From NCBI GenBank assembly GCA_964248365.1, contig CAXTYC010000023.1, positions 11,598 to 75,597 on the forward strand: a stretch of DNA of 64,000 nucleotides. The letters are read 5' to 3'. This stretch comes from an uncultured Chroococcidiopsis sp. (lineage in GTDB: Bacteria; Cyanobacteriota; Cyanobacteriia; Cyanobacteriales; Chroococcidiopsidaceae). Made by a program: the position numbers and the translations under genes. Numbering within the stretch: the first letter of the stretch is position 1; each line of letters starts with the position of its first letter. Below the pieces are notes generated by a model. That model was not told where the DNA came from. It made no database searches and worked only from the letters and a program-made list of their open reading frames with translations. This document shows, piece after piece, positions 8,208-47,854 of the stretch.

Positions 8208-11200
8208 GTGCAGAAATCTCAAGAGCAACAGCAAGCGATCGCAACCACTTTCATACAGGAACCACTTGCAGCATCTAGCGTTACAGATCAGCAGATGGTG
8301 CAAGCGGCTATACTTGCCGATCCTTCAATTGATGAGTGTGTTGTACTAAATCGAGCAAAGGAACCCACTAGAGAGCTTGTTGCTTACGTAGTCTCTAGGG
8401 GAAAGTTCTCTCCAGAGCAGATCCAATCTCACTTGCAAGCTAGTCTGCCTTCAGATCTTTTAGCGATCGCCTATGTACCTGTGTCTAAACTGCCCCTTAC
8501 TCCTACAGGACAAGTGGATGAGCAAGCTTTGATTGCTCTAGAGGTGGTCGATTCTGACTTGGTGCAAAGATGGGAAACTCAACTGCAATCCCTGCCAGAA
8601 ATTGAGCAAGCAGCCCTCGTAGTTCAAGAGTATATAGAAACTTCTCCCCCGCTACATCTGTCAGATTTGCTGCCCGATTGGAAGTCCACCCCAAGCACTA
8701 GTACTGCAACCACAATTACAACTGCAAGCTCTTTTGATGCTATTGAAGAAGCAACCGAATCCAAGGCACTAGCCATCAGCTACGGCGGATCTCTGCCTGA
8801 AGAACCTAATGCTCCCACCACTCTACCAGAAGTTCTGCAAAGAGCAGCTCGTCAAATTCAGGGAGATAGCATTGTCTACCTCCAGCCAGACGGCACAGAA
8901 ATCTTTCAATCTTATGGGGATTTAGTGGAGGAGGCAGAGCGAATTCTAGCTGGACTGAGAAAGCTAGGGTTGAAACCTCAAGACAAAGTAATTTTACAAC
9001 TGGAACTCAACCAAGACATTATCCCAGCGTTCTGGGGTTGTATTTTAGGAGGCTTTATTCCCGTAATTATGGGAGTAGCACCGACTTACAGTTCATCCAA
9101 TAATGCAGTAGACAAGCTGTGTAATGTTTGGCAGTTATTAGATCAGCCTTTAATATTAACCACCCAAGCACTCCAAAAATCAGTACAATCTCTAACTCAA
9201 TGGCTACCCGCTGAAGATTTTCAAGTAAGCTCAATTGAAGCATTAAGAAAAAACACTGCTGATAAATCATATCACCCTTGTAAACCAAATGATCCGGCAT
9301 TTTTCAACCTGACTTCTGGCAGTACCGGAATGCCAAAATGTATCAGTCTGACTCACTGGAATCTAATATCTCGCGCTATAGGAACTAATATCCTCTCTCA
9401 CCACGACTGTGAAGATGTAATTCTAAATTGGCTGCCTTTCGATCATATTGGTAGTATTTCAGACTGGCATATTCGCTGTGTTTACTTAGGCTGTAAACTT
9501 ATTTATACAAATAAAGAATATATTCTTGGTCACCCATTAAACTGGTTAGATTTAATTGATAAATACCGCATTACTCATAGCTGGGCATCTAACTTTGCCT
9601 ATGCCTTGATTTATGATGCCCTCAAACAAGAACCTGAACACAAATGGGATCTATCCTGCGTCAAATCCTTACTCACCGCTGGAGAAGCTGTTTCTTCCAC
9701 TGCTGTGAAGGATTTTATTGAAAGTCTTGCTGTTCATGGTTTCAAAAAAACAGCCATTCGTCCAGCTTTTGGCATGGCAGAGATGGGATCTGGTATTACT
9801 TACTATCAGCCAACAGAAGAAAATCCTCTACTTTTTCATACTGTTGACAAATCTTCTTTAAAAGGCTCCATTAAAAGAGTAAGTGCAGAGCATCCAAATT
9901 GCACAACTTTTACAGATTTAGGTCCAGTGATTCCTGGGGTATCGATTCGGATTGTAGACAAGGAAAACTCACTGTTATCTGAGGATACAATTGGTTGTCT
10001 ACAAGTAAAGGGCGATGCTGTATTTGCTGGCTACTACAAAAACCCAGAAGTCAATAAAGAAGTATTTGTAGAGGATGGCTGGTTTAATACCGGAGATTTA
10101 GGATTTATTTCCGATGGTCATCTGGTTGTTACAGGTAGGGCTAAAGAAACCATTATTATTAATGGAGCCAATTATTACAACCATGAAATTGAAGCGGTAG
10201 TAGAAGAAATTGAAAGAGTTGATGTTTCTTATACTGCTGCCTGTGCTGTGCGGGATGCTAAGGGTACTACCGATAAATTAGCAATCTTTTTCAGTGCTTG
10301 CGGTGTTGATGAAGAGCATCTAATTGAATTGCTAAAGCAAATCCGGCAAACAGTTGTTGGCAAAGTGGGGGTAAATCCTGATTACTTAATTCCTGTTGAA
10401 AAGGAGGTTATTCCCAAAACAGCAATTGGTAAAATTCAGCGATCGCAACTAAGCAAACTTTTTGAAGCGGGTGAATTTGACCATATTCTCAAACGCTTAG
10501 ATATTCTGCTCAAAAACGCTAATACACTGCCAGACTGGTTCTATCGCAAAAGCTGGCGACCGAAAGAAGTTGTATCTTTAAATATTCAACCTCTGACGGG
10601 TCAAACTCTGGTGTTCCTTGACTCATTAGGAATGGGTGAGTTGATCGGTGCAGAACTAAGCCGTCAGTACCAGCCATGTGTCAGCGTCGAGGTGGGGTCA
10701 GATTTTGTTCAGTTGAGTAGCGATCGCTATCAAATCAATCCTCAAAACCCTGACCACTATCGGCAACTACTTGAGTCTGTTTCAGAATGCACTTTACAAA
10801 TTGGTCAAATTCTGCATTTATGGAATTATGACAATTATGCTGGCGAAATTTCAAGTCCAGAGGAACTAGAGCAGGCGCAGGAAAGAGGAATCTACAGTTT
10901 GCTGTTCTTGGTGCAGGCGCTGGCTAAAGTTCAGAGTTCTGAGCATCCAGTTCGCTTGTTAGTTGCAGCTAGTCACACCCAGCCTACCTCGGCATCTGAC
11001 AAAGTTGCGGCTCAAAAAGCGCCGATGTTGGGTTTGATTAAAGCAGTGTCTCAGGAATTATCTTGGCTGGACTGTCGCCATGTGGATTTATCTCTAGACA
11101 CGGTAGAAATCAATGCTGAGCAAATACTGCGAGAGTTACGAGTTTTGCAGCGATCGCCAGAAGTAGCTTACCGCCAAAATCAGCGTTTGGTTCCCTGCTT

Positions 11201-13454
11201 GGAGAAAGTTGACTGGAGTCAGGAGCCAGAGCAACAACTGCCTTTTAAGCAAGGTGGAATGTATCTGCTGAGCGGTGGTTTAGGTGGTATTGGTGTTGAG
11301 ATTGCTAAGTATCTGTTGCAAAATTACAATGCTCGGTTACTGTTGGTAGGTAGAACTGCGTTACCAGAAAGAAACACATGGGATGCGGCTTTAAAGGAAA
11401 AAAATGCTGTGCGAGAGCGGATCGAGGCTTACCTATCTCTAGAACAACTGGGAGGAGAGATTGCATATCAGGCTGTTGATATTTGCGATCGCATTCAATT
11501 GCAACAGGTAGTTGATCGAGCTAAGTCGCTTTGGCAATGTGAACTAGATGGAGTAATTCATCTAGCAGGAACCGCACCAGAACGCTTGTTAGTTGACGAA
11601 ACTCGTGACAGTTTGGCAACAACCCTGCGTCCCAAGGTTTTGGGTACTTGGGCGTTGCATCAATTGATTAAAGACCAGCCAAACAGCGTTTTTATCAGCT
11701 TCTGTTCGTTGGCGAGTTTCTTTGGCGGCGCGATGATTGGTGCTTATGCTGCTGCTAATAGTTTTCTAGACTGCTTTACCCACTATCAGCGATATCATCG
11801 TTCATTGCAGAGCTATTGCTTTGCTTGGGGGATGTGGGAAGCGATCGGTATGAGCCGGAATTCTCAAGCAAAGGATTTACTTCGTGCCAAAGGTTATCAA
11901 GCTGTGACGCTAAAGCAGGGGATGCATTCACTGCTGATAGGTTTGCACCACGATCAAGGGCAACTACTGGTAGGTTTGGATGGCAGTAACCGCAATATCC
12001 GACGGTATATAGAACCGCAGTTGTGTCGCCGTGTTCAGACACTATCTGCTTATTTCACTGCTAACACCGATTTATTGCTCTCAGGTAGGTTAGAAGCATT
12101 GTTAGTGAGCGATCGCTTCGGCACACCAAGTAAATGCACCTTTCGGCAGATCCAGCAAATGCCGCTAACAGATACAGGTGAAATCGACCGCACACAGCTA
12201 GCCGCAATTGGTCGTGCGGGAGCTGCCGATCAGGTGAAGCCGACAACAGAACTAGAATGCCAACTAGCTAGCATCTGGCAGCAGGTATTGGGGGTTTCCC
12301 AAGTAGGCATCCATGACAACTTCTTTGAGTTAGGTGGGAGTTCACTACAAGCCGCGCGTTTATTTGCTGAAATTGAAAAAACCTTTGGCAAAAATCTGCC
12401 CTTGGCTACCCTCTTTGAAGCTCCAACAGTCGCGCAGCTTGTCACTCTTATCAGCACACAAGAAGAGTCAGTATTGTGGTCTTCGCTGGTTCCGATTCAA
12501 ACTGGGGGTTCTAAGCCACCTTTGTTTTGTATTCATGGAGCTGGTGGCAACATTCTCATGTACCGCCAACTAATACCTTACTTAGATTCAGAGCAACCAA
12601 TTTATGGAATACAGCCAAAGGGACTAGATGGACATGAGACACCCCTTAACCGGATTTCAGAAATGGCGAGTGTTTATGTCAATGAAATGCGTGACTTGCA
12701 ACCTGAAGGACCCTACTACTTGGCTGGTTTATCTGCTGGTGGCTTAATTGCCTTTGAGATGGCACAAGTCCTTCAAGCTCAGGGTCAACAAGTGGCAATG
12801 CTTGCCTTAATCGATCCTCACGCTCCTGGTTATCCCAGATTATTGCCTGTAGTACCTCGATTATTATCATTGCTACCTTATGCAGCTTACCATTTAGCCA
12901 AAAGAAGCCCATCTCGTATAGCTAAGCTGTTCCAATCTAGACTATCGCAAGCTCGTTCACAATCACAGCAAGCAGTCAGTCAAAGCTATGCAACAAGTGA
13001 AAATCTTCAACAGAACGAGGGATTAGAGGTATCGATCAATAGCAATAGAAACTTACCTCGAAAAATTAATTCTTTGCGCGATCGATTGGAATATTTCAGC
13101 CTCTGGCTTTTGAAATTTACTCCCTGGGCATTTCTTGTGCCGAGGTTTTACTTAGAGGAGGCGAATTCTTTACCTAACTCTCTTCAGAAGATTCAAAAAG
13201 CCAATGTTGAGGCAATGCTTTCTTACAATGCCCAAGCCTATCAAGGTCGGGCAATCCTGTTTCGCGCTAGCGAACAACCACCCGGATGTTACCCCGATCC
13301 CCAGTTGGGCTGGAGTAATTTAGTGGCTGGAGGACTTGAGGTTTACCAAATCCCTGGCTATCACAGTGAATCTTTGCTGTATGAAGAACGAAGTGTTCGA
13401 GTTCTTGGCAAGCAGTTGAAGACTTGCTTAGATCGAGCGATCACAAATAAGTAG
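8208..13454 (+). CDS. Stand-alone NRPS-like enzyme: (Asub remnant)-A(keto-acid type)-KR-T-TE
   Basis: A: LTSGSTGMPK, NWLPFDHIG, FGMAE, FNTGDLG, GRAKETIII, PKTAIGKIQR. KR: SGGLGGIG (11271) and YAAAN. Carrier: DNFFELGGSSL (Ser codon 12342). TE: GLSAGG (Ser codon 12732) and PGYH. No condensation domain. GTG start preceded by GGAGG. Confidence 0.9.
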   Translation: MQKSQEQQQAIATTFIQEPLAASSVTDQQMVQAAILADPSIDECVVLNRAKEPTRELVAYVVSRGKFSPEQIQSHLQASLPSDLLAIAYVPVSKLPLTPTGQVDEQALIALEVVDSDLVQRWETQLQSLPEIEQAALVVQEYIETSPPLHLSDLLPDWKSTPSTSTATTITTASSFDAIEEATESKALAISYGGSLPEEPNAPTTLPEVLQRAARQIQGDSIVYLQPDGTEIFQSYGDLVEEAERILAGLRKLGLKPQDKVILQLELNQDIIPAFWGCILGGFIPVIMGVAPTYSSSNNAVDKLCNVWQLLDQPLILTTQALQKSVQSLTQWLPAEDFQVSSIEALRKNTADKSYHPCKPNDPAFFNLTSGSTGMPKCISLTHWNLISRAIGTNILSHHDCEDVILNWLPFDHIGSISDWHIRCVYLGCKLIYTNKEYILGHPLNWLDLIDKYRITHSWASNFAYALIYDALKQEPEHKWDLSCVKSLLTAGEAVSSTAVKDFIESLAVHGFKKTAIRPAFGMAEMGSGITYYQPTEENPLLFHTVDKSSLKGSIKRVSAEHPNCTTFTDLGPVIPGVSIRIVDKENSLLSEDTIGCLQVKGDAVFAGYYKNPEVNKEVFVEDGWFNTGDLGFISDGHLVVTGRAKETIIINGANYYNHEIEAVVEEIERVDVSYTAACAVRDAKGTTDKLAIFFSACGVDEEHLIELLKQIRQTVVGKVGVNPDYLIPVEKEVIPKTAIGKIQRSQLSKLFEAGEFDHILKRLDILLKNANTLPDWFYRKSWRPKEVVSLNIQPLTGQTLVFLDSLGMGELIGAELSRQYQPCVSVEVGSDFVQLSSDRYQINPQNPDHYRQLLESVSECTLQIGQILHLWNYDNYAGEISSPEELEQAQERGIYSLLFLVQALAKVQSSEHPVRLLVAASHTQPTSASDKVAAQKAPMLGLIKAVSQELSWLDCRHVDLSLDTVEINAEQILRELRVLQRSPEVAYRQNQRLVPCLEKVDWSQEPEQQLPFKQGGMYLLSGGLGGIGVEIAKYLLQNYNARLLLVGRTALPERNTWDAALKEKNAVRERIEAYLSLEQLGGEIAYQAVDICDRIQLQQVVDRAKSLWQCELDGVIHLAGTAPERLLVDETRDSLATTLRPKVLGTWALHQLIKDQPNSVFISFCSLASFFGGAMIGAYAAANSFLDCFTHYQRYHRSLQSYCFAWGMWEAIGMSRNSQAKDLLRAKGYQAVTLKQGMHSLLIGLHHDQGQLLVGLDGSNRNIRRYIEPQLCRRVQTLSAYFTANTDLLLSGRLEALLVSDRFGTPSKCTFRQIQQMPLTDTGEIDRTQLAAIGRAGAADQVKPTTELECQLASIWQQVLGVSQVGIHDNFFELGGSSLQAARLFAEIEKTFGKNLPLATLFEAPTVAQLVTLISTQEESVLWSSLVPIQTGGSKPPLFCIHGAGGNILMYRQLIPYLDSEQPIYGIQPKGLDGHETPLNRISEMASVYVNEMRDLQPEGPYYLAGLSAGGLIAFEMAQVLQAQGQQVAMLALIDPHAPGYPRLLPVVPRLLSLLPYAAYHLAKRSPSRIAKLFQSRLSQARSQSQQAVSQSYATSENLQQNEGLEVSINSNRNLPRKINSLRDRLEYFSLWLLKFTPWAFLVPRFYLEEANSLPNSLQKIQKANVEAMLSYNAQAYQGRAILFRASEQPPGCYPDPQLGWSNLVAGGLEVYQIPGYHSESLLYEERSVRVLGKQLKTCLDRAITNK

Positions 13455-13530
13455 CACAGGTATTTAAGGGAAGCAAAGGGGAGTTAGTAAATTCTAATTC
13501 CCCTCGCTCCTCGCTCATGCCTATTTTCAA

Positions 13531-14670
13531 GTGAAGTCTATTTTCGGACTTAATCTAACAATGCAACAAGCAAAGCTTCAACAAATTGACCAAGACTTGA
13601 TTAGGCTGCTAAGGGAAAGAATAGCAGTCTTGGCAGAATCAGGAATTCCTCCTTTAGAGCAGCAACTGTCAGACTGCTCATCCTACCTTGCTCAGACAGG
13701 CGTGCCAGAATCTCTATGGCAAAATATTGTCACAGGTTGTGTTGCTGCACTCAAGAGCGCATCCTTGTCTCACAATCAGATTGAGCCGCGCAACATTACT
13801 GCGATCGGCGGAGGCGGTATGATGGGGCGCTTCTTTACACAGCGGCTGCAAGCAGCTGGACATAATGTTAATGTTCTCGAATACAATGACTGGGATAATG
13901 CAGAGAAATTACTATCCCAGGCAGATTTAGTATTAGTCTGCGTTCCCCTCAAAAGTACATTGGCTGTAATTCAAAAGGCAGCTAAATACCTTCGTCCAAC
14001 CACTGCACTAGTTGATATTGCCAGTATCAAAACTCCCTTCGTGCAAGCTATGCTAGAGCAGCATAAAGGACCTGTATTGGGTTTACATCCCATGTTCGGT
14101 CCAGGGGTCAAATCCTTCTTGTCACAAAAAGTTGTAGTTTGCCCAGGTCGTGAAAATGAGGCGTTCCAATGGTTTCTAGACTTTATTAAAAATGATGGCG
14201 GCAAGCTGATTACCTGTACGCCCCAAGAACACGATCGCATGATGATAGCTATCCAAGCAATCCGGCATTTCTGTACGTTTAGTCTTGGTGTTTTCTTGGC
14301 AGAAGAAGAAATTGATATAGCCCGTAGCCTAGAGTTTGCTAGCCCGATTTATCGCCTTGAAAGTAACATAGTTAGTCGCCTGTTTGCCCAGGATGGGTCT
14401 TTATACATAGATATCATACTAGCTTCCGAGGAACGCACTGGGGCAATCGGTAGGCTGGCGCAGACTTATAACCGTTTGGCGAAATTGGTGGCACAAAAAG
14501 ATCGCTCCGCCCTGATGCGCGAGTTTGTAAATGTCGGCAATGCTTTTAAACAAGAGTCGGATCGCGCTCTTGAAGAAAGTAATTATGTGATCAACGCCAT
14601 CAGTACACTTTTAGCGGCAAGCGAGGTCAAAGCGAATTCAACGCCAGCAACACTTGTCAGCAACACTTAA
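13531..14670 (+). CDS. tyrA: Prephenate dehydrogenase with a degenerate chorismate-mutase-like N-terminus
   Basis: IGGGGMMG Rossmann motif, DIASIK, GLHPMFGP, EHDRMMIAIQAIRHF; translation may start at the Met 10 codons in. Confidence 0.88.
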   Translation: MKSIFGLNLTMQQAKLQQIDQDLIRLLRERIAVLAESGIPPLEQQLSDCSSYLAQTGVPESLWQNIVTGCVAALKSASLSHNQIEPRNITAIGGGGMMGRFFTQRLQAAGHNVNVLEYNDWDNAEKLLSQADLVLVCVPLKSTLAVIQKAAKYLRPTTALVDIASIKTPFVQAMLEQHKGPVLGLHPMFGPGVKSFLSQKVVVCPGRENEAFQWFLDFIKNDGGKLITCTPQEHDRMMIAIQAIRHFCTFSLGVFLAEEEIDIARSLEFASPIYRLESNIVSRLFAQDGSLYIDIILASEERTGAIGRLAQTYNRLAKLVAQKDRSALMREFVNVGNAFKQESDRALEESNYVINAISTLLAASEVKANSTPATLVSNT

Positions 14671-14692
14671 ACTTACTTGAGCTTATCTGGAA

Positions 14693-16156
14693 ATGAACCT
14701 ACGACAAAAGGCTGCTAAAGGTGTAGCTTGGTCTGCGATCGAAAATTGGGGTAATCAGGCAATCTATTTTGTCCTATTTCTTGTGCTTGCCCGCCTGTTA
14801 CCACCAGAAGCCTTCGGGCTGGTTTCCTTGGCTGGTATTTTGATCAGTTTTATGATGGTCTTTGCTGATCAAGGAATTAGTGATGCGCTCATACAACGCC
14901 AAGAACTGGAACCAGAACACTTAGATACTGCTTTCTGGACTAACGTTGGCGTTAGTGCTTTGCTAACTATATTTAGCATTGCTGCTGCCCAACCCGTGTC
15001 TAACTTATTCCATCAGCCGCAGTTGATGCCAATTATATGCTGGTTATCCCTAAGCTTTTTGAGTAGCGGCTTGAGTAGTGTGCAGCAGTCACTTTTGCGT
15101 CGCCAATTTGCCTTCAGAGCTTTAGCAGTGCGATCGCTCTTAGCGTTATCTGTCGGAGGTATCGTCGGTGTAAGTATGGCTTGTATGGGCTGGGGTGTCT
15201 GGAGTCTAGTTGGTCAGCAGTTGGTCGGTCGGTTAGTTACAGTTCTAGCTCTATGGTGGGTTAGTGACTGGCGACCTGGTTTTAGGATTTCTGCCAAACA
15301 TTTTAAGGAGTTGTTCTCCTTCGGGATAAAAATGCTCGCAGGTAGTATACTCGCTTTTTTTAGTATCCGCTCTGATGATTTTTTAATCGGATACTTCCTC
15401 GGTCCTGTGGCACTTGGCTACTACACAGTTGCCTACAGGCTGCTGGTAGCTATGACACAGATGATAAGTGCTACTACACGCCAAGTCGCACTACCGATAT
15501 TTTCCAGGCTACAGCAACAGACCGAGCAGCTAAGGCAAGCATTTCTCAGTGCCACACAGTTCTTGAGTTTGTTTGTTTTTCCAGCCGCTTTAGGTCTAGT
15601 GGTACTAGCTCCCGAAGTGGTGCGGACTTTGTTCGGTGAGCAATGGACACCAAGCGTTCCGGTGATGCAGATTCTTGCTCTGAGTGTCATGACACAGATA
15701 GTCGGTTCTCTGGGTGGAATTATCTTGGTAGCAGTCGGCAAGCCTGATTGGGGTTTAAAAATGATTTTGCTCAACACTGTGGTTAACGTCATCGGTTTTG
15801 CGATCGCAGTTCGATGGGGCATTGTGGCTGTGGCAGCATCATTTGTAATTCGTGATTATCTACTTCAACCTGTTTTGTTTTGCCTCGTCTATAAGCTTAC
15901 AGGCATCAAGGTTTTCACTTATCTTCGCCAATTTGCCGTCCCACTTGTTGGTTCGCTAATCATGATATTTTTTATCTTGGGAGCAAAATTCTTCCTGGGT
16001 AACTTGCTAAACTCGCAGGCATTATTAGCAACTTGTGTGACGCTTGGAGCGTCGATATACACAGCAACAATACTGTTAATTGCACCAAAAATATTCTGGC
16101 AAGTAGTTAATTTTGCTGGCTTATCATTAGGAATTTCTAAGTTGAAAAAAACTTAA
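14693..16156 (+). CDS. wzx: Wzx (PST-type) polysaccharide flippase
   Basis: LARLLPPEAFGLV, ALIQRQEL, DDFLIGYFLGPVALGYYTVAYRL; many TM segments. Confidence 0.9.
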   Translation: MNLRQKAAKGVAWSAIENWGNQAIYFVLFLVLARLLPPEAFGLVSLAGILISFMMVFADQGISDALIQRQELEPEHLDTAFWTNVGVSALLTIFSIAAAQPVSNLFHQPQLMPIICWLSLSFLSSGLSSVQQSLLRRQFAFRALAVRSLLALSVGGIVGVSMACMGWGVWSLVGQQLVGRLVTVLALWWVSDWRPGFRISAKHFKELFSFGIKMLAGSILAFFSIRSDDFLIGYFLGPVALGYYTVAYRLLVAMTQMISATTRQVALPIFSRLQQQTEQLRQAFLSATQFLSLFVFPAALGLVVLAPEVVRTLFGEQWTPSVPVMQILALSVMTQIVGSLGGIILVAVGKPDWGLKMILLNTVVNVIGFAIAVRWGIVAVAASFVIRDYLLQPVLFCLVYKLTGIKVFTYLRQFAVPLVGSLIMIFFILGAKFFLGNLLNSQALLATCVTLGASIYTATILLIAPKIFWQVVNFAGLSLGISKLKKT

Positions 16157-16303
16157 AACTTTTAGCCATAAGCGCTACAAATTTGGTTATTCACGGTTAT
16201 CTAATTACTTATATGGCTCAAATAAATATTCAACCACACAGGTCTTAATTACATAAGTTTTAGTAGCGAATATGGTGAATTGATACTTTAAGGAAATTAC
16301 AGT

Positions 16304-17467
16304 ATGCGTGTTTTAAGTATTCATAACCGCTATCAAATTCGAGGTGGAGAAGACGAGTCTAGGGAAGCAGAGGAAAAACTTTTACGGGAAATGGGTAACA
16401 TCGTTGATGTATATGAAGAAAACAACGATCGCTTAGCAACTATCAACTCTGTAGAAATGGCTCTGAGGACAGTCTGGTCTAAAGAGGCTTATCAAACAGT
16501 AAAACAGCGTCTAAAAAAGCAGCCCCACGATATAGTTCACGTTCAAAATTTTTTTCCTCTAATTTCTCCCTCAGTTTACTACGCAGCAAAGTCCCAAGGG
16601 GTTCCTGTAGTTCAGACTTTGCGTAACTATCGTCTTTTGTGTCCTAATGGTTTGTTTTTTCGCAACGGAAGTGTCTGCGAAGATTGTCTGGGCAAGGCAG
16701 TTCCTTTGCCTGGGGTATGGCATGGCTGCTACCGAGAAAGCCGCATGGCAAGTGGAGCTGTTGCAACAATGCTGACTGTGCATCGCACCATGCGAACTTG
16801 GATAGAGATGGTAGATGTATATATTGCCCTTACCGAGTTCGCGCGTCAGAAGTTTATTCAAAGTGGTTTTCCAGCAGAAAAAATTGTAGTTAAGCCTAAC
16901 TTCGTTCACCCCGATCCAAAACCAGGAGAAGGGCGCGGAGGGTATGCCCTCTATGTGGGAAGGCTTTCAGTAGAAAAAGGATTAGATACGCTGCTATCCG
17001 CTTGGGAGCGATTGGGAAAACAGCTACCTCTCAAAATTGTTGGGGATGGACCACTAACAGATCAGGTAGTTGAGGCTAGTAAGAAACTTGGCTGTGTAGA
17101 GTGGTTGGGACGCAAACCGATGCAGGAAGTTTATGACTTGATGGGTGAAGCTACCTTTGTGGTTTTTCCATCAAAGTGGTACGAAACCTTTGGTCGAGTG
17201 GCAGTAGAAGCTTTTGCTAAAGGTACTCCAGTGATTGCTGCTAATATTGGAGCGATCGCTGAATTAATTGAGCATCGTCGCACTGGGCTACACTTTCGTC
17301 CAGGCGATTCGGAAGATTTAGCAACGCAGGTAGAGTGGGCTTTGACGCATCCAAGAGAACTTGCCCAGATGCGCTACCAGGCTAGAACTGAGTTTGAGGC
17401 TAAATACACCGCCCAGCAAAACTACCGCAGATTGATAGATATTTACCAATTGACCTGTGACAATTAG
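16304..17467 (+). CDS. Glycosyltransferase family 4
   Basis: HNRYQIRGGED; PSKWYETFGRVAVEAFAKGTPV. Confidence 0.9.
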   Translation: MRVLSIHNRYQIRGGEDESREAEEKLLREMGNIVDVYEENNDRLATINSVEMALRTVWSKEAYQTVKQRLKKQPHDIVHVQNFFPLISPSVYYAAKSQGVPVVQTLRNYRLLCPNGLFFRNGSVCEDCLGKAVPLPGVWHGCYRESRMASGAVATMLTVHRTMRTWIEMVDVYIALTEFARQKFIQSGFPAEKIVVKPNFVHPDPKPGEGRGGYALYVGRLSVEKGLDTLLSAWERLGKQLPLKIVGDGPLTDQVVEASKKLGCVEWLGRKPMQEVYDLMGEATFVVFPSKWYETFGRVAVEAFAKGTPVIAANIGAIAELIEHRRTGLHFRPGDSEDLATQVEWALTHPRELAQMRYQARTEFEAKYTAQQNYRRLIDIYQLTCDN

Positions 17468-17491
17468 TTCTGAATTGGATGGCAACAAAAG

Positions 17492-19414
17492 ATGAAAAAA
17501 ATTCCTGTACTTACAATCAGTGCTGGCGCGATTTTATCTTCTTGTTTAATCGTAGCCAATATGATGCAGCAGCGAATATCGTTTCAGTCCTTGGCAAGTA
17601 ATTCTGCTGTACTAGCAAATAACACAACAACCGTTCCAGCTGCGGAAGTTACAACTGACAATATTATCTTTCCAAAGGATGGGGGTGTAATTAATGTTAA
17701 AAATGCTCCATACAACGCTAAAGGAGATGGTGTTACTGACGACACGGCGGCAATTGGGCGGGCGCTGGGCGCTTACCCTAATGCAAATAAGATTATTTAT
17801 TTACCAAAAGGTACTTATCTAGTCTCGAACCAATTACAATGGCCCAATGGTAGGGGTGGACAAGAACATAAAAGAACAATCCTACAAGGTCAGAACACAG
17901 GAAAGACAATTATCAAGTTAAAAAATAGCGCCCCTGGCTTTACCAACCCATTTTTGCCTAAAGCAGTGATTTGGACTGGCAATGCTCCTGCTCAGCGGTT
18001 TCGGAATGCTATTCGTAATTTGACAGTAGATACAGGTACTGGTAATTCAGGTGCGATCGCCATCCAGTTCATTGCAAATAACCAAGGCACAATACGTAAT
18101 GTAACCATACGCTCAGGTGATGGTCAAGGTATTGTAGGACTTGATATGTCCTACACCAATGAAATCGGTCCTTTATTAGTTAAAAATCTCAAAGTCTATG
18201 GCTTTAATGTCGGCATCAAGACAGCTAACAAAGTTAATAGCCAAACCTTTGAACATATCACCTTGCAAAACCAAAAAGAATACGGTTTTGCTAACTATGG
18301 TCAAGTAATTAGCATCCGAGACTTGCAGAGTAACAATGTTGTGCCTGCAATTTATAATAAAGACGGAATTCTAACTTTAATTGATTCAAAATTAACTGCA
18401 ACCAACAAAGTATCAGGGCAGCCTGCCATTAAAAACGACTCAACGCTTTTCGCCCGTAACATCAAGATATCAGGCTATCAAATCGCCATTGGGAATAAAA
18501 GTGGTCGGCAGAATGTTGCCAGTTCGTCAGTGACGGAATTTGTATCTCATCCAATCTCTAGCGTTTTTCCCACACCATCCAAATCGTTGAATCTGCCGAT
18601 AGAGGAAACACCAGATGTATCATGGGATGCCTTAAGTAATTGGGAAAGCCCAACTCATTTTGGTGCAGTTCCTAATGACAATAGAGATGACAGTGCGGCA
18701 ATTCAGGCTGCGATCGACTCTGGCAAAACAACCGTGTACTTTCCTAATGGTTCGTATATAGTTAATCATACTATTTATATCAGAAATAAAGTCAAAAGAA
18801 TTATTGGACTAGAGGCTGGTATTGTTGGTAAGGGCGTTTTTCGTTTTGTAGAAGGTAGTGCGCCTGTTGTAGTTATAGAACGTCTTGACGGAATTGGAAG
18901 TGGAATTATCCATGCCACTTCTAGAACACTAGTTCTCAGCAGTATGAGCCTGGCTCCCAGCGGTGGTAAAGCCAGCTATTCCAATATTGGAAATGGCAAA
19001 CTTTTTATTGAAGATGTGGTAGGAGGACCTTGGAAATTTGAGCGGCAAAAAATTTGGGCGCGGCAGTTCAACGCTGAAAATCAAGGTATACACATATCTA
19101 ACAACGCGGGAAACTTATGGATACTAGGTCTCAAAACTGAAAGAGATGGTATTTTGGTAGATACTAAAGCAGGTGCAAAAACTGAAATAATAGGAGGATT
19201 GATTTATTCTAATTCTGACCGGAAAACAACACCAATGTTTACAAATGAAAACTCTGCTGTTTCCCTGACTATTGGAGAATGTAATTTTAATCGAAATTTC
19301 TACTTTAATTTAGTTACTGAAACACGAAATGGTGTGATGAAACAATTAAATAGAGGTGATACACCACAGCGTTGTAATGGTAGTGCCATTCCTTTATACG
19401 TTGGGCATAAATAA
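17492..19414 (+). CDS. Secreted pectate-lyase-fold (GH55-like) beta-helix protein
   Basis: N-terminal hydrophobic segment; two beta-helix entry motifs, NVKNAPYNAKGDGVTDDTAAI and HFGAVPNDNRDDSAAIQAAI, each followed by YLPxGTY/YFPNGSY. Confidence 0.75.
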   Translation: MKKIPVLTISAGAILSSCLIVANMMQQRISFQSLASNSAVLANNTTTVPAAEVTTDNIIFPKDGGVINVKNAPYNAKGDGVTDDTAAIGRALGAYPNANKIIYLPKGTYLVSNQLQWPNGRGGQEHKRTILQGQNTGKTIIKLKNSAPGFTNPFLPKAVIWTGNAPAQRFRNAIRNLTVDTGTGNSGAIAIQFIANNQGTIRNVTIRSGDGQGIVGLDMSYTNEIGPLLVKNLKVYGFNVGIKTANKVNSQTFEHITLQNQKEYGFANYGQVISIRDLQSNNVVPAIYNKDGILTLIDSKLTATNKVSGQPAIKNDSTLFARNIKISGYQIAIGNKSGRQNVASSSVTEFVSHPISSVFPTPSKSLNLPIEETPDVSWDALSNWESPTHFGAVPNDNRDDSAAIQAAIDSGKTTVYFPNGSYIVNHTIYIRNKVKRIIGLEAGIVGKGVFRFVEGSAPVVVIERLDGIGSGIIHATSRTLVLSSMSLAPSGGKASYSNIGNGKLFIEDVVGGPWKFERQKIWARQFNAENQGIHISNNAGNLWILGLKTERDGILVDTKAGAKTEIIGGLIYSNSDRKTTPMFTNENSAVSLTIGECNFNRNFYFNLVTETRNGVMKQLNRGDTPQRCNGSAIPLYVGHK

Positions 19415-19455
19415 TGACAGCAATAATTTGGATACTTGCCCCTAGAGGTAAATAA

Positions 19456-20781
19456 ATGAATTTACAAGCTATATCTCAAAAAAAAAGAAAGGGATATGTC
19501 CAGCTTTCCCATTTGTTAATGTTGGCGTTTTGCTTGGCTTTTTATCCCCGCGTTCTCACTTTATTAAAAATTCCATCATTTGTTAATCTTTTACACCTGA
19601 TAATTATTCCAGGTATTTGTTTATTTACAATACTTAAAACCCGAACTAGAAGTAAGAGCCAAATTGCCATTTCAAAGGCGTTAATTTTTGGCATAACTAT
19701 CTTGTTTACAGTAATGGTTGCTAGCGCCCTTTTAAATAGGGCTGGATTTATCAATGTAATCGTAGATTTTTTGCTTCTGTGCGAACCGTTCATGATGTTG
19801 CTGGCATTCGTAAGCATTCCCATGTCTCCAACCAAAATTGAACAAATTCGCACTTTGCTAATTTATTCTGGCTTTATTAACACCTTGTTTGCCTTTGTTC
19901 AGCACTATATTCTCAAGCTGCACCTCCGCCCTGGGCAAGAAGATAACATCAAAGGAGTATTTATCGCACAAGGAGCAGGTCACGTTATAGGCGCTTCGGT
20001 TGCATTGACCTTTGGTCTGTATTATTTTTTCAATGCTAAGACTGTTCCCCTGTGGCTCCGCGCATGTGTATTACTTGCTACTTTTTGGCATATAATACTT
20101 GCTGATGCCAAGCAGGTGTTGCTAGCTTTTTTGGTAGGTGGGTTACTTCTATTATTAACTAAGTTCAAGGATATTGGACAGGCAATAAAGTACCTTTCAG
20201 CTGGAAGTGTAATTGTTTTACTGTTAGTTTGGTGTCTAGAAAATGTGCCTGCTTTCTCTGCATACAAGACTTGGCTCAGACCAGAAATCTATGGTCCTGA
20301 TGGTGAAGCTACCAAACTCAAGTTGGCGACATTTTCAATCGTTCCTTCATACTATCATTCACCCCTAAATCCTTGGCTGGGTCTTGGACCTGGTCATACC
20401 GTTGGGCGCTTAGGAGGATGGATGCTTAGAGAATATGAAGCTTTATTGACACCTTTAGGCTCTACTACCCATCCTGCTAGCAATGCTGTGTGGGCAGCAA
20501 CAGCAGCAAGTTGGCTCGGAAACCAATCGAGTATGTTCTCGCCACTGTTTGGCTGGGCTGGTATCTGGGGCGATTTAGGTTTTTTAGGGCTAGGAGCATA
20601 CCTGTATCTCGCGTTTTTAGTTTGGCATAAGCTTTGCTTGAATGACTTTTCCAAATTTTTACTATTGTGTGTATCTGTTTTTGGTCTGATTTTTTCTCAA
20701 ATGGAAGAACCTGGTTATATGCTATTTGTGGCAACCATAATCGGTCTTCAATGGCAAGAAAAACGATACAGAAGAACTTAA
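19456..20781 (+). CDS. Polytopic membrane protein, probable Wzy polymerase / O-antigen-ligase-like
   Basis: About 10-11 hydrophobic segments with a large loop containing GLGPG, then GIWGDLGFLGLG; located in a Wzx-containing cluster. Confidence 0.65.
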   Translation: MNLQAISQKKRKGYVQLSHLLMLAFCLAFYPRVLTLLKIPSFVNLLHLIIIPGICLFTILKTRTRSKSQIAISKALIFGITILFTVMVASALLNRAGFINVIVDFLLLCEPFMMLLAFVSIPMSPTKIEQIRTLLIYSGFINTLFAFVQHYILKLHLRPGQEDNIKGVFIAQGAGHVIGASVALTFGLYYFFNAKTVPLWLRACVLLATFWHIILADAKQVLLAFLVGGLLLLLTKFKDIGQAIKYLSAGSVIVLLLVWCLENVPAFSAYKTWLRPEIYGPDGEATKLKLATFSIVPSYYHSPLNPWLGLGPGHTVGRLGGWMLREYEALLTPLGSTTHPASNAVWAATAASWLGNQSSMFSPLFGWAGIWGDLGFLGLGAYLYLAFLVWHKLCLNDFSKFLLLCVSVFGLIFSQMEEPGYMLFVATIIGLQWQEKRYRRT

Positions 20782-21362
20782 AATTAAATAGATACCGCAA
20801 ATATACAAAAAGCAAAAACACTGCTAAAAGATTGGACATCTGAATATTTGTATTGGACGTTTCCAAAAATTAAAGCCAGCCCTAATAACAAATCGCGTAT
20901 ACGTTAAGCCCCACAAATCACCCAAGAGGCGCGACGTTTCGGGAAAGAAGCTTCTTTCCCGAAAGCTCGCAAGTCGTGGCTTTAATTTATGGAGAATTCT
21001 ATTAAAGCTGGGGCAGTTGTCGGGGTTTTTGATTGAAAACACCGCAGCAGCAGAATTTGTCCCCCCTACACTTGTGAAGGTTTCATAAACTTTTCAGTAA
21101 GTTTATGTAAAATTACGCAAAGTAGCTAAATAGACATGGTATAAAAAATACATATCCTTGAACCTGTGTGAATTTTAGGAATTATGTTAGTCGAAAACGA
21201 GTGGCAATCTGGGCTATAGCCCAGAATTGGTAAAACTTTTTTGCTGACTCGTTAAGGGTTGTTTGCTTTAAACAATTGTTATTCGTACTAGACTAGCAAT
21301 CTGGAAAATTCAGAAATTTCGCCAGTCTGACAGGTTATTACTTATAGCTTTTGTATTTATAG

Positions 21363-22706
21363 ATGAGTGTTCTTATGAATCTCAAATCCATCTATGCTCG
21401 TATTGGCATATCTGCTCGTACGCGCATTGTATTTATTAGTGTTTTATTCTTTCTTACTGGGCTAATTATTTTTACTGGGCTATCTATTTTTACTCAACCA
21501 GCTAGTGCAATTAGTTTTACAACCAACAGTGTTCGACCAGCAGATGTACTCGATTACGAGGCACTAGGTTACACATATGACACACTTTCTATCCAAGGCA
21601 GCAATAGAAATCTAAAGGTCAGAAAAAATGCTGCAAGTTTGAACTCGGGCGAAATCAGCAGGTTCGTCAATGCCGTTTTAAGCTTGAAACGGACAATGAC
21701 TTCAGGCAGTGATGGCACGCGAATTAGTATATACGATCAGTTTGTAGCAACGCATTTAGGAACCACAGACGTAGCGGGGCGTATAGGTCCAGATGGCAGA
21801 CGTTTTTCAAGTCCTGCTCATGGCAATGCTGCCTTTCTACCATGGCATCGTGAATTTCTATATGAATTTGAACACCTTTTGCAGGTAGTAGATCCGTCCG
21901 TAACAATCCCCTACTGGGATTTTACAGATCGTAATACAAGAAACATTATCTTCCAGAACAATTTCATCGGACCTAATGGCGGTGCTTCTGGAGTAGGCGG
22001 TGGTGCGGTACAGTCTGGTTTTTTCTCAGCAGCTAATGGATGGCGGCAAAGAAGAGACTTGAGTAGCAACACATGGGCAGGGAGATCTACCGATACCCAA
22101 CCACTTACACGCTATATGCGTTCTCCTGATAGATTACCTACTACAACTCAGGTCAATCAAATCCTTGCCCAAACTTCCTATGATGCGTTTCGCGGTTCCC
22201 TGGAAACTACAGCACATGCTGGAGCCCACCTGTGGATGGGAGGCTCGACGGCAAATGTCTCAACTTCTCCCAACGATCCAACGTTTTGGCTGTTGCATGC
22301 GAATGTAGACCGCATCTGGGCTGAATGGCAAGTGGATGGACATTGGGGTAGCGATTGGTATACTAGGACTGGTAAACCTTTCGGACACAACCTGAATGAC
22401 ATGATGTGGCCCTGGGATCAAGGTCGCATGAGTGCTGCGGCTGATTTGCAAGCCTTAATACCCAGTCTATCCTCAGTTGAAGCTAGAACTCGCCGTTCAC
22501 TACGTTCAGTTGAATTTAGGGTTGCCAGTAGTCCAGAAGAGTTAATGTCAGATCACAACCGTCATTTGTACAATCCATTTGACTCTCAGGGTGAACACGA
22601 GATGCATCACCATATGCTTTGTGAGGCAAATACATCGAGCGATATGCAATGTGACAACAACACAGACAACATTGCTGCTGCCTCATCCATCCTTCCTCCA
22701 GCCTAA
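21363..22706 (+). CDS. Secreted tyrosinase-family (type-3 copper) protein
   Basis: CuA: VATH, SPAHGNAAFLPWHREFL. CuB: TAHAGAH, SPNDPTFWLLHANVDRIWAEWQ. N-terminal hydrophobic segment ending PASA. Confidence 0.9.
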   Translation: MSVLMNLKSIYARIGISARTRIVFISVLFFLTGLIIFTGLSIFTQPASAISFTTNSVRPADVLDYEALGYTYDTLSIQGSNRNLKVRKNAASLNSGEISRFVNAVLSLKRTMTSGSDGTRISIYDQFVATHLGTTDVAGRIGPDGRRFSSPAHGNAAFLPWHREFLYEFEHLLQVVDPSVTIPYWDFTDRNTRNIIFQNNFIGPNGGASGVGGGAVQSGFFSAANGWRQRRDLSSNTWAGRSTDTQPLTRYMRSPDRLPTTTQVNQILAQTSYDAFRGSLETTAHAGAHLWMGGSTANVSTSPNDPTFWLLHANVDRIWAEWQVDGHWGSDWYTRTGKPFGHNLNDMMWPWDQGRMSAAADLQALIPSLSSVEARTRRSLRSVEFRVASSPEELMSDHNRHLYNPFDSQGEHEMHHHMLCEANTSSDMQCDNNTDNIAAASSILPPA

Positions 22707-22877
22707 ACGTCTTTGCTATTTTAATTAACTAGGTGAAGCGCTTTCCGTTCCTCTCAGGAATATAGAACTTATCTGTGAAAGCTACATTTCTGAGGGGAGA
22801 TGGTAAGTGGCATCGTTTACTTAGCACCCTCGTCAGTCTTGAGAAATTCTCAACTGAATACAACTTAAGGATTCAGA

Positions 22878-23345
22878 ATGTTGAAATTAATAGGCTTGAG
22901 TGCAACTTTATTTACTAACACTTTTGTGTTTTTGTCTGGCGCTCAATTGGAGGCGATCGCACGAGAGCCTGATTACCCTTGCTACATGATTGCTCCCTCC
23001 GGCCAAACTGTAGATTTATCTAACTCCCTGTGTAGTTTCGGACATAATATTGTTGATACTAGTGCTAATATTGACGACTTATTCTTTGCTGATTATAAGC
23101 AAGCTCTAATCAAAAAGTATCCAAACTTAAATAATGTTTTGCTGGAGCAACAACCTGAAGCGTTTGGGTATGCTCATGCTGTTTGTAATGGTCTGAAGTC
23201 TGGGCTTTCTCCTAATGTAATTCAAAGTTTACAAAACGAGCAAATTGTTAATACCATTTCTGGAAGAAACACGATTGTTGACTTAGAATTGATTAATTTT
23301 TTAGCTCCTAAATACTATTGCCCACAATTCAAGCAAGGTAGGTAA
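22878..23345 (+). CDS. Secreted hypothetical protein (CYM..G..VDL..LC motif plus DUF732-like C-terminus)
   Basis: Signal-like N-terminus; PCYMIAPSGQTVDLSNSLC; YAHAVCNGLKSG...APKYYCP. Confidence 0.6.
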   Translation: MLKLIGLSATLFTNTFVFLSGAQLEAIAREPDYPCYMIAPSGQTVDLSNSLCSFGHNIVDTSANIDDLFFADYKQALIKKYPNLNNVLLEQQPEAFGYAHAVCNGLKSGLSPNVIQSLQNEQIVNTISGRNTIVDLELINFLAPKYYCPQFKQGR

Positions 23346-23852
23346 ATCACAATTTTGTCAAAATCATTACAAAAGCACTGTTATTAAGCAATATTTGGCA
23401 TAACTAATTTTTGTCTAGCTGATTACAAGTTTATAGCTGAGCGCTATCACCCTTATGCTTATTTTTTATTTTTTCAAGTCATCAACTATAAATTTACATA
23501 AAAATCAAAATTACACTAACAAATAATCTTTTAAATATCTTAAAAATACGGTATTTTTTATTACCTTTAACTATATATTTTTTTAATAAAGCGCTGCTAT
23601 TAGTCCGTTCAAACAGGTTTTTTGGATGTATTCTATATTAATACTCCTCAAAAAATTGAATTTTACTTACAGTTACTAAGATTAGCATAACTTTTTTGTT
23701 AGTAAATCATAAGTAATTATTAATAATTAGAACTGCTACTTTAAATAAGTTAGCACTAGTTATTTGTAAGGTTACACAATTATTAACTTTATAATCAACT
23801 TTTTTGAGAAAGTGATTATTTGTTTATTCTGGAAAATTAAGGATTAATTTAT

Positions 23853-24722
23853 ATGCTAATGAAAGCTGATACAAAGCAAATAAAGAATCAAGCCAAATTA
23901 GTACTTACAAATCAATTTCAAGCTTTAGATCTAACAAAGCTAAAAGCTACAAATTCTCAAATAACTACGCATGACATTGATGTGATAGGCTCACCTGTGA
24001 CAGCTGCACCTTTCGATGTCCAAATAGAAATGATGTTGGAATGGGCTAGTAGCCGTGCAAGTAAAGTGGTTTGTGTAGCAAATGTCCATATGCTGACGGA
24101 AGCTTATTGGCATCCAGAGTTTAGCTCAGTCTTAAAAAATGCAGATATGGTGACACCTGATGGTATGCCCTTAGTTTGGATGCTGAAGCTAATGGGAGCG
24201 CGTGATCAAAATCGTGTGGCTGGAATGGATATTTTATTGTCTTTGTGTAAGCTCACTCCCCAGCGAAACATTAGTATTTTCTTCTTGGGTTCCCAGCCAG
24301 AAATTCTGGAGAAAATGAGCAAGAAATTAAAGTGTGAGTTTCCTAATTTGCAAATAGCAGGGATGGAGCCATTACCCTTCCGTCCACTTACACGAGCAGA
24401 GGATGAGGCTCTGATCCAAAAGATTCATAACAGTGGATGTGGCATAGTTTTAGTGTCTCTTGGATGTCCAAAACAAGAGTACTGGATGAATCAACACAAA
24501 GACAAAATTCAGGCTGTGATGATTGGGGTGGGGGGAGTTTTCCCAGTGTATGCAGGAATTGTGAAACGCGCTCCCTTATGGATGAGGAATTTAGGATTAG
24601 AGTGGTTTTATAGGTTCGTTCAAGAGCCGCGTAGACTGTGGAAACGATACGGAACTACTATCCCTCCTTTTATTTGGTTAGCTTTAAAGCAGTTACTCAG
24701 CTTAAAGCTAAAATTGGGGTAA
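23853..24722 (+). CDS. WecB/TagA/CpsF-family glycosyltransferase (GT26)
   Basis: ANVH, PDGMPLVW, RVAGMD, VSLGCPKQE, LGLEWFYRFVQEPRRLWKRY. Confidence 0.92.
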   Translation: MLMKADTKQIKNQAKLVLTNQFQALDLTKLKATNSQITTHDIDVIGSPVTAAPFDVQIEMMLEWASSRASKVVCVANVHMLTEAYWHPEFSSVLKNADMVTPDGMPLVWMLKLMGARDQNRVAGMDILLSLCKLTPQRNISIFFLGSQPEILEKMSKKLKCEFPNLQIAGMEPLPFRPLTRAEDEALIQKIHNSGCGIVLVSLGCPKQEYWMNQHKDKIQAVMIGVGGVFPVYAGIVKRAPLWMRNLGLEWFYRFVQEPRRLWKRYGTTIPPFIWLALKQLLSLKLKLG

Positions 24723-43168: not shown

Positions 43169-43170
43169 TC

Positions 43171-43233: not shown

Positions 43234-43277
43234 CCACGTTCTAGGGGTGAGGTTGATCCACACTTTTAAGGCTATAT

Positions 43278-47846: not shown

Positions 47847-47854
47847 CTTAATAA

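Follow-up and report, generated by a model that had tools for sequence, protein, structure and literature searches.

In the Dlt system for the D-alanylation of teichoic acids, the acyl group reaches the glycan by way of an adenylating enzyme and a carrier protein, with an MBOAT protein acting outside the membrane, and the thioesterase (TE) of Pks13, which transfers mycolate to trehalose, provides a precedent for a TE working as an acyltransferase onto a sugar. The extracellular oxidation of a polymer-tethered phenol to quinones or radicals is familiar from eukaryotes, as in feruloylated arabinoxylan and pectin (through peroxidase or laccase), in the sclerotisation of the insect cuticle and in the DOPA adhesives of mussels. 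To our knowledge, no bacterial polysaccharide is an example of oxidative crosslinking through a tethered phenol. Here, we describe a locus found in a 64,000-nucleotide stretch of DNA (hereafter, the window) from an uncultured Chroococcidiopsis sp. (contig CAXTYC010000023.1, positions 11,598 to 75,597), in which genes encoding a predicted exported tyrosinase (21375-22706), a nonribosomal peptide synthetase (NRPS)-like enzyme that we call the loader (8208-13454) and a Wzx flippase (14693-16156) lie in one exopolysaccharide (EPS) cluster.

The linkage of the tyrosinase, the loader and Wzx within EPS clusters persists through rearrangement of the surrounding genes. No description of this module was found in the literature that could be searched and it is apparently undescribed, although it combines known kinds of system, namely an EPS cluster, a keto-acid NRPS module and a tyrosinase. 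A previous interpretation made from the letters of the window (hereafter, the sequence-only reading) had proposed that the whole locus makes a phenol-decorated polysaccharide that the tyrosinase oxidises outside the cell. A fuller version of this mechanism, in which a Wzx/Wzy-type EPS with a co-inherited phenol module is tanned outside the cell, is developed below; we put it forward tentatively, and would stop just short of calling it probable.

Results

Linkage of the tyrosinase, the loader and Wzx

The linkage was probed from both ends, with tyrosinase orthologues and with orthologues of the loader, whose domains are an adenylation domain (A), a ketoreductase (KR), a peptidyl carrier protein (PCP) and a TE. 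Loci L001 and L002 encode tyrosinases 62% and 61% identical to that of the window and share the order GT4 (four genes), tyrosinase, a 154-residue open reading frame (ORF), A-KR-PCP-TE, Wzx, GT4 and GT2, with no tyrA. Full-length orthologues of the loader are present in a Leptolyngbyaceae metagenome-assembled genome (MAG; L008, 81% identity), in Lyngbya confervoides BDU141951 (L009), so that the module has at least one cultured carrier, in an Acaryochloris MAG (L012) and in additional MAGs (L010, L011, L013, L014 and L015). The tyrosinase lies upstream of the loader in every locus of the loader search with enough upstream sequence, and tblastn places its domain 2-3 kb upstream in L009, L011, L012, L013 and L014. 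In L009 the tyrosinase ORF reaches 2767 residues: giant secreted proteins encoded at 1000-9303 in L009, 263-3775 in L011 and 53-3592 in L013 combine DUF4347, FG-GAP/VCBS and Ig-like repeats and a beta-strand-repeat region with the tyrosinase domain. The tails of the giant proteins also bear long His/Asp/Met-rich repeats such as MDHGDHDMGGDMNHGDHGG, which may capture copper. The gene order is DUF4347-tyrosinase, A-KR-PCP-TE, sulfotransferase, C-PCP-TE and PDH in L037, exactly that of the window in L118, and beta-helix, Wzy-like, tyrosinase, small ORF, WecG, ispG and ctpA in L120. Since L008 and L120 come from the same MAG, this genome holds the complete set, split over two contigs.

The tyrosinase is thus found in 11 of the 11 informative loader loci (the window, L118, L008 with L120 as one MAG, L001, L002, L009, L011, L012, L013, L014 and L037; L010 and L015 were left out as too short), in four gene orders and from Leptolyngbyaceae to Acaryochloris. 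In contrast, it is absent from all 12 control loci whose keto-acid module is of another kind (pocket code VAVWGGGSG or similar) and from all 80 generic PCP-TE loci from metagenomes. The latter, obtained by a metagenome scan with a TE-domain alignment and generic TE motifs and used as a negative control only, are ordinary PCP-TE ends with 31-41% identity, apart from two short partial matches at 53-56%. Wherever the locus extends far enough, Wzx follows the loader or the loader-TyrA pair, and in L001 the wzx gene overlaps the stop codon of the loader gene. In the distant loci the identity of Wzx is 48-51% versus 52-55% for the loader; compared with L009, the window proteins are 54% (NRPS), 52% (TyrA), 48% (Wzx) and 43% (tyrosinase) identical, while the surrounding glycosyltransferases differ. 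The idea that the tyrosinase travels with an NRPS-tyrA-wzx cassette therefore stands for the NRPS-like loader and for Wzx but not for tyrA, which is missing in three loci.

In a rough neighbour-joining tree, the window clade, a clade of fusion and 4-hydroxybenzoate-associated tyrosinases and an unlinked Microcoleus/Ancylothrix clade form one superclade, so the linkage is either ancestral and lost once, or was gained twice. The most similar unlinked tyrosinases, the tandem pairs of Microcoleus and Ancylothrix (39-50% identity), stand in unrelated contexts. Related enzymes so placed, and the large gap with a probable own promoter upstream of the window gene, are in keeping with a tyrosinase that, with its small partner, is a mere passenger inserted in an EPS island, as a nearby insertion resembling a miniature inverted-repeat transposable element (MITE) might suggest. 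Such an absence of functional link is strongly disfavoured, and to us very improbable, given a co-occurrence of 11 out of 11 maintained over four gene orders and family-level taxonomic distances, against 0 out of 92 controls. The unlinked tandem pairs (L030, L031, L033 and L034) have conserved neighbours of their own, which are a MerR-family regulator, a TOBE protein, an alanine dehydrogenase and topoisomerase I.

A loader with the features of keto-acid modules

The 1748-residue loader, recognised by Pfam, comprises an N-terminal Asub-like remnant, a keto-acid ligase/adenylation domain (KAL/A), a pseudo-KR, a KR, a PCP and a TE with a large lid insertion. Its best match in the PDB is the A-KR-PCP module of StsA (6ULW, E 1.9e-258, residues 118-1417), the adenylation domain of McyG coming next. 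At the position of Asp235 in GrsA, the loader has I414, which aligns with I306 of StsA and with a Val in McyG and is invariant in the orthologues; in the A5 region, a Gly-Met pair (G522-M523) replaces Gly-Pro and aligns with G414-M415 of StsA. Both features, the hydrophobic side chain in place of Asp235 and the Gly-Met pair, are published hallmarks of keto-acid ligases (PMC11253843, PMC13643306). Residues 31-101 are an AMP-binding_C-like fragment, which fits the N-terminal element described as completing a pseudo-Asub in such keto-acid modules (PMC13643306). Across the orthologues, the KR keeps the NADPH motif GGLGGIG, the LRPKV, SFxSL and YAAAN motifs and intact K/S/Y catalytic residues; the PCP serine motif FFELGGSS (GGSS) is conserved, and the catalytic GLSAGG (GxSxG) and His of the TE are intact. 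This set of motifs supports a predicted A domain of the keto-acid type accompanied by an intact KR.

The nine variable positions of the substrate pocket read IGSWLAASG in all 11 linked orthologues, at overall identities of 52-81%. This invariance points to one conserved substrate, whether tyrA is adjacent or not. The corresponding codes are VGVWVAASG in McyG and IGVWIGASA in StsA; over the 10-residue pocket the loader equals McyG at seven positions and StsA at six, with two positions siding with McyG, which activates aromatic acids, over StsA. With 7/10 for the one and 6/10 for the other, a call between an aromatic and an aliphatic substrate from this code was given up. Ten other cyanobacterial KAL domains share the glycine-rich code VAVWGGGSG and that of L018 reads AAVWGGGSG; no tyrosinase lies near them (L018-L029, from Hydrococcus, Xenococcus, Elainella and others).

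The loader is a single protein ending in its TE and does not belong to a multimodular NRPS in which it would hand its product to a condensation (C) domain; the Pfam scan detected no C domain in the window, and a separate C-PCP-TE occurs in L037. As for the TE (12480-13454 of the window), its lid insertion of about 150 residues is conserved, and the L012 orthologue is devoid of it. This lid contains the hydrophobic stretches LPVVPRLLSLLPYA and LEYFSLWLLKFTPWAFLVPRFYL, which could touch the membrane or a lipid-linked acceptor.

The TyrA-like dehydrogenase and a parallel 4-hydroxybenzoate variant

Between the loader and Wzx, the window encodes a TyrA-like protein (13531-14670; PDH_N and PDH_C in Pfam) that scores 312 bits against the NCBIfam T-protein family NF008400 (cut-off 273). 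Residues 88-356 match the T-protein of H. influenzae (2PV7, E 2.3e-60) far better than the cyanobacterial arogenate dehydrogenase 2F1K (3e-8), and the dehydrogenase domain is of the enteric T-protein prephenate type, with 4-hydroxyphenylpyruvate as expected product. The dedicated tyrA of the scytonemin cluster likewise stops at p-hydroxyphenylpyruvate (PMC2726228). The N-terminal segment of about 87 residues is only faintly chorismate-mutase-like: CM_2 gives E 0.13 and 13 bits (cut-off 27) on the first 106 residues, E 0.036 in L118 and no match in L009. A tyrA gene is present in eight loci (the window, L118, L008, L009, L010, L013, L014 and L037); as L001, L002 and L012 do without it, the gene counts as a frequent accessory outside the conserved core.

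A sister arrangement is found in L032 (4546-16051), L035 (7544-16564) and L036, where a tyrosinase stands beside loading genes of the 4-hydroxybenzoate type. The tyrosinases concerned (P0024 and P0026) show 49-53% identity over the domain, and both have a PEP-CTERM tail. The set further includes a CusF-like copper protein, a PPTase, an Rv2949c-like chorismate pyruvate-lyase, a stand-alone AMP ligase, a DAHP synthase, a PCP, an esterase and a C-PCP-TE, and is divergent from Wza-Wzc-WecG. From this gene content, the sister loci look like systems that charge a carrier protein with a second monophenolic acid, 4-hydroxybenzoate, in the company of a surface tyrosinase and of genes for EPS export. 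This parallel is the strongest indirect argument that the substrate of the tyrosinase is the loaded phenol.

These data also bear on the nature of the acyl group. Should the loader activate a non-phenolic 2-keto acid such as pyruvate, ketoisovalerate or phenylpyruvate, the product would be a lactyl/hydroxyacyl- or phenyllactyl-EPS and the tyrosinase would have another substrate. The six pocket positions out of 10 shared with StsA, which is specific for ketoisocaproate, and the three loci lacking tyrA agree with this alternative, which nevertheless leaves aside the dedicated prephenate dehydrogenase accompanying the loader in eight loci, the identity of the pocket code with or without tyrA, the use of another monophenol by the sister system and the need of a tyrosinase for a phenol. 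We regard it as quite improbable.

The tyrosinase

The tyrosinase scores 143.6 bits against PF00264 (cut-off 22.6), and its core, from about residue 85 to 357, matches PDB entries 6J2U, 1WX2 and 3NM8 at E values of 1e-33 to 5e-39, spanning in alignment the full length of the Streptomyces and Bacillus megaterium tyrosinases. Residues are numbered from the ATG at 21363 (minus 4 for a start at 21375). The six copper-ligand histidines, H131, H153, H162, H285, H289 and H312 (CuA H-x-H-x8-H; CuB H-x3-H...H), are invariant in 75 of 75 aligned relatives. By these criteria, the protein is a member of the type-3 copper tyrosinase/catechol oxidase family, phenol oxidation itself being predicted. Since the first ATG (21363) is ATA in L120 and most orthologues begin with MNLK, the true start is probably the second ATG, at 21375 (MNLK...).

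The sequence-only reading had described this enzyme as secreted, and the description agrees with a conserved N-terminal signal peptide made of basic residues, about 22 hydrophobic residues and an AxA site (PASA|IS). With regard to Tat export, some orthologues have a twin arginine (RR) and the window enzyme carries ARTRIV at this place, without it. The protein also contains a conserved GYTYD motif and a His/Met-rich C-terminal tail (GEHEMHHHM). In distant relatives, the tyrosinase domain is found inside giant secreted repeat proteins or with a PEP-CTERM tail. Together, the signal peptide, the fusions to surface proteins and the PEP-CTERM tails indicate a predicted extracytoplasmic location.

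The small secreted partner

Between the tyrosinase and the wecG-type gene, an ORF missed in the sequence-only reading (22878-23345) encodes a secreted protein of 155 residues that has a signal peptide and, in the family alignment, four Cys and five Tyr that never vary. This conserved family has only 19 members, all beside a tyrosinase where the context is known, and is restricted to the close tyrosinase clade. An AF2 model (pLDDT 64) shows a hairpin and a helical bundle, for which Foldseek found no match in the PDB below E 3, and DUF732 is matched below threshold only; a literature search on DUF732 and copper gave nothing relevant. A MelC1-like caddie identity was rejected in view of the helical model and of the lack of a PDB fold match. 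Copper delivery, regulation and a role as substrate are candidate functions.

The last of these roles would be that of a tanned protein. The tyrosinase would then act on tyrosines of secreted proteins, be it the 155-residue partner, its own GYTYD(Y)GY region or sheath proteins, and produce DOPA-protein crosslinks, the product of the NRPS-like enzyme being an unrelated decoration of the EPS. The constant proximity of a small protein with five invariant Tyr in the close clade and the fusion of the tyrosinase to adhesin-like repeat proteins in distant loci are in line with such protein tanning. On the other hand, the giant-fusion and 4-hydroxybenzoate variants are without the small protein yet keep a loader of phenolic acids, and the recurring partner of the tyrosinase is the phenolic-acid pathway and no particular protein, which makes this explanation improbable in our view.

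The region upstream of the tyrosinase

The gap between the Wzy-like gene and the tyrosinase is 581-593 nt long, compared with 445-465 nt in relatives. It contains a 132-nt MITE-like insertion (20862-20993) with 17-nt terminal inverted repeats and the perfect palindrome CGGGAAAGAAGCTTCTTTCCCG at its centre, which occurs once in the window and is not found in the same gap of L118 and L120. Alignment with these two loci shows that the 300 nt next to the tyrosinase are conserved in blocks, one of which is a TGnTATAAA extended -10-like motif (21137-21145), and identifies a conserved non-coding region (21060-21374) as a candidate promoter and 5' untranslated region. In scans with consensus promoters and terminators, the number of sites was not above that of shuffled sequence, so that the candidate promoter rests on conservation only. 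Because of the conserved upstream blocks, the separate transcription that the sequence-only reading had drawn from the gap of about 580 nt is plausible, as is a tyrosinase promoter of its own. An Rfam scan of 20700-24000 returned nothing meaningful.

The polysaccharide cluster and its surroundings

According to the ORF list and the Pfam and NCBIfam scans of the window, all the genes across 582-27651 are on the + strand. Upstream of the loader, six glycosyltransferases assigned by Pfam (GT4, 582-1847; GT61, 1978-3264; GT4, 3459-4637; GT4, 4643-5881; GT2, 5968-6906; GT4, 6991-8145) are the presumed builders of the repeat unit; four have orthologues in L001 and L002, located ahead of the tyrosinase. 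Wzx belongs to the MOP family (PF13440, 309 bits) and is followed by a GT4 glycosyltransferase (16304-17467) whose orthologues in L001, L004, L008 and L118 are 74-88% identical, and by a secreted right-handed beta-helix protein of the pectate-lyase/epimerase type (17492-19414; PF12708, with an N-terminal hydrophobic signal), which probably trims or modifies the polymer.

The next gene (19456-20781) encodes a 441-residue multi-pass membrane protein of about 10 hydrophobic segments, without any Pfam or NCBIfam match and with more than 1400 cyanobacterial homologues annotated as hypothetical. Its AlphaFold model, built with 44 homologues (pLDDT 83.5, pTM 0.86), has a single significant PDB match in Foldseek, the O-antigen ligase WaaL (7TPG_B, E 6e-6, TM 0.56-0.60). 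The model thus places the protein in the Wzy/WaaL fold superfamily, where a polymerase and a ligase are indistinguishable; the label "Wzy-like" given in the sequence-only reading is retained at the level of the fold superfamily and not as the identity of a polymerase, for which there is no hidden Markov model match. This family is very large and unusually conserved, its members in filamentous cyanobacteria (Phormidium, Lyngbya, Limnospira and Calothrix) being 55-62% identical.

The last gene of the cluster encodes a WecG/TagA/CpsF-family glycosyltransferase (23853-24722; PF03808, 219.5 bits; TIGR00696), in the same position in L004, L118 and L120. The placement of the tyrosinase between the Wzy-like and WecG/TagA genes, in a cluster of uniform strand, was correctly described before. 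The housekeeping genes ispG and ctpA come next and close the cluster. In L120 (9748-13882, from the Leptolyngbyaceae MAG), an IS605 OrfB/TnpB gene and two tyrosine integrases lie just after ctpA. The other genes vary among loci and are all of the EPS type (GT4s, sulfotransferases, Acyl_transf_3, pyruvyl transferase, DegT aminotransferase and Wzc). Wzc is encoded upstream in L001, and Wza-Wzc in L035; the window may not include the whole upstream part of its cluster.

Sequences matching the window come from metagenomes of air, urban surfaces and rock. About 17 kb from the tyrosinase locus, three consecutive genes of the window (41101-44642) encode a DHQ-synthase-like protein (41101-42342), an O-methyltransferase (42335-43168) and a protein of the ATP-grasp type (43278-44642), and make up the core of a cluster for a mycosporine-like amino acid sunscreen. 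This occurrence and this core fit an exposed, subaerial organism. Farther on (47151-48904) is a type II restriction-modification pair, with an Eco47II-type endonuclease gene convergent with that of a C-5 cytosine DNA methyltransferase.

Discussion

A proposed mechanism for a phenol-decorated polysaccharide tanned outside the cell

In the mechanism that we propose, the T-protein-type prephenate dehydrogenase would supply 4-hydroxyphenylpyruvate, and the KAL-KR-PCP-TE protein would adenylate this alpha-keto acid, load it on its carrier domain and convert it by reduction into a 4-hydroxyphenyllactyl thioester; the chemistry of the domains is predicted from the conserved motifs, and the identity of the substrate is what we infer from the genetic context. 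At the cytoplasmic face, the TE would then acylate one of the sugars of the lipid-linked repeat unit, as the only candidate for this transfer given that no other suitable acyltransferase is conserved across loci. Wzx would flip the decorated unit and the Wzy/WaaL-fold protein would polymerise or ligate it, the genes being present and their roles presumed. Outside the cell, the exported tyrosinase would oxidise the pendant phenol to a catechol or o-quinone, which may react further and leave the sheath crosslinked, browned or adhesive. Our confidence is highest for the action of the tyrosinase on the product of the loader and falls, in turn, for the identification of this product as a 4-hydroxyphenyl hydroxy-acid, for its attachment before flipping and for the crosslinking or pigmentation of the sheath by oxidation. 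That the polymer carries the acyl group, and that the sheath becomes crosslinked or pigmented, is pure conjecture.

Several observations weigh against this mechanism. The residue following the first CuB histidine (H285) is an Ala in the window enzyme, as in nine of 20 clade-A sequences, and an Asn in 61 of 75 relatives. An Asn at this position is a proposed determinant of monophenol hydroxylation, although the criterion is debated, and by that criterion the Ala weakens the case for monophenol hydroxylation by the window tyrosinase. McyG also has the Gly-Met pair though it is not a keto-acid user, so that this motif is necessary but not sufficient, and the pocket code alone would not separate aromatic from aliphatic keto acids. 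Besides the absence of tyrA from L001, L002 and L012, a bifunctional chorismate mutase activity of TyrA was rejected, since the NCBIfam label passes but the chorismate mutase domain is undetectable. The scan of the window ORFs revealed no initiating phosphoglycosyl transferase and no Wza/Wzc, the tyrosinases that are closest among the unlinked ones have unrelated neighbours, and the window sequence matches solely DNA metagenomes, with no RNA run among them. Finally, nothing in the data favours transfer to a sugar by the TE over hydrolysis or oligomerisation, and the extra C-PCP-TE of L037 and L032 hints at the assembly of a small molecule.

This last point leads to the main rival explanation, in which free, oligomeric or glycosylated 4-hydroxyphenyllactate would be exported, oxidised by the tyrosinase to a melanin-like polymer and deposited in the sheath without covalent attachment, as a pigment or adhesive. 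TE domains usually hydrolyse or cyclise, which together with the C-PCP-TE of the variant loci speaks for such a product, and the linkage between the tyrosinase and the NRPS would be accounted for equally well. What this explanation does not account for is the constant downstream Wzx, of a divergence similar to that of the loader and overlapping the NRPS stop in L001, nor the fact that the module is always embedded in glycosyltransferase/EPS-export clusters; in addition, the cluster is without a small-molecule exporter. We consider the small-molecule route unlikely, though it deserves more weight than the passenger, acyl-group and protein-tanning alternatives.

The phenol-polysaccharide model of the sequence-only reading is therefore maintained in part: the linkage, the predicted extracytoplasmic tyrosinase, the loader of keto-acid type and the TyrA of prephenate type are in its favour, while tyrA is not a core gene and an Ala replaces the Asn of the tyrosinase. 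Extending the phenol-decorated polysaccharide to other organisms, cyanobacteria of exposed surfaces and marine mats may build a sheath bearing an ester-linked monophenol (4-hydroxyphenyllactate or 4-hydroxybenzoate, depending on the variant) that is loaded before flipping and cured by a surface-anchored tyrosinase, as a bacterial counterpart of cuticle sclerotisation and mussel glue and a candidate basis of brown pigments other than scytonemin. This generalisation is possible but doubtful at present. The suggestion made earlier that the locus could be related to gloeocapsin-type pigments is unsupported, as nothing ties it to gloeocapsin, and the gloeocapsin papers give no genes. The phenolics reported in a study of the capsular polysaccharide of Leptolyngbya are methanol-extractable compounds and are not specific evidence for the model (PMC5153682).

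If the proposed mechanism is true, this would be the first bacterial polysaccharide known to have an enzymatically installed phenol and its own extracellular oxidase. It would explain cyanobacterial sheaths that are insoluble, brown, adhesive or UV-screening without scytonemin and point to genes that can be tested as candidates for orphan sheath pigments. A further consequence would be a new use of keto-acid NRPS modules, in the decoration of glycans in place of the synthesis of depsipeptides, and a genetically encoded route to self-crosslinking biopolymers. Even with another chemistry, the conserved tyrosinase/KAL-KR-PCP-TE/Wzx module is a clear experimental target.

Comparison with known systems

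The loader shares its KAL-KR-carrier chemistry with the loading module of aeruginosin synthetase AerA (A-KR-PCP, converting 4-hydroxyphenylpyruvate to Hpla), with StsA and CesA and with CrpD-M2. The likeness extends to the hydrophobic residue at the Asp235 position, to Gly-Met, to ketoreduction in cis and to the N-terminal Asub-like remnant (PMC10143770, PMC11253843, PMC13643306). Unlike the AerA/StsA-type modules, the window loader is without a condensation domain or downstream modules, has its own TE and stands alone beside Wzx in a polysaccharide cluster; its code (IGSWLAASG) also differs from that of StsA (IGVWIGASA) and from that of the other cyanobacterial KALs analysed here (VAVWGGGSG).

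The scytonemin cluster of Nostoc punctiforme resembles the locus in having an extracellular sheath product, a dedicated tyrA, a membrane-anchored or exported tyrosinase-like protein (TyrP) and a glycosyltransferase (PMC2726228). The Pfam scan found neither scyA-scyF nor tryptophan-supply genes among the window ORFs, and the chemistry predicted here differs from that of scytonemin in being carrier-protein based and set in a Wzx/Wzy cluster. With the MelC1/MelC2 pair of Streptomyces, the window enzyme shares a homologous core (NCBIfam MelC2, E 4e-42, below cut-off; PDB 1WX2, E 3e-36), its export and an adjacent small secreted partner. This partner is downstream in the window, helical and without similarity to the caddie protein; also unlike MelC2, the tyrosinase carries a signal peptide of its own, together with a His/Met-rich tail that, like the CusF-like protein of L032, may serve copper loading.

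The first steps of mycobacterial phenolic glycolipid synthesis (Rv2949c and FadD22, acting on 4-hydroxybenzoate) have their counterpart in L032, L035 and L036, where the tyrosinase is accompanied by an Rv2949c-like lyase, an AMP ligase and a PCP. These loci depart from the mycobacterial system by the absence of polyketide synthase extension and by their context of EPS export and tyrosinase, and the window itself uses the KAL-KR route. Compared with Dlt and Pks13, substrates and topology differ, and the transfer by the window TE is hypothetical. With the phenol-crosslinking systems of eukaryotes, finally, the locus shares no homology but the same logic, which here we read from gene content: a phenol tethered to a polymer and oxidised outside the cell.

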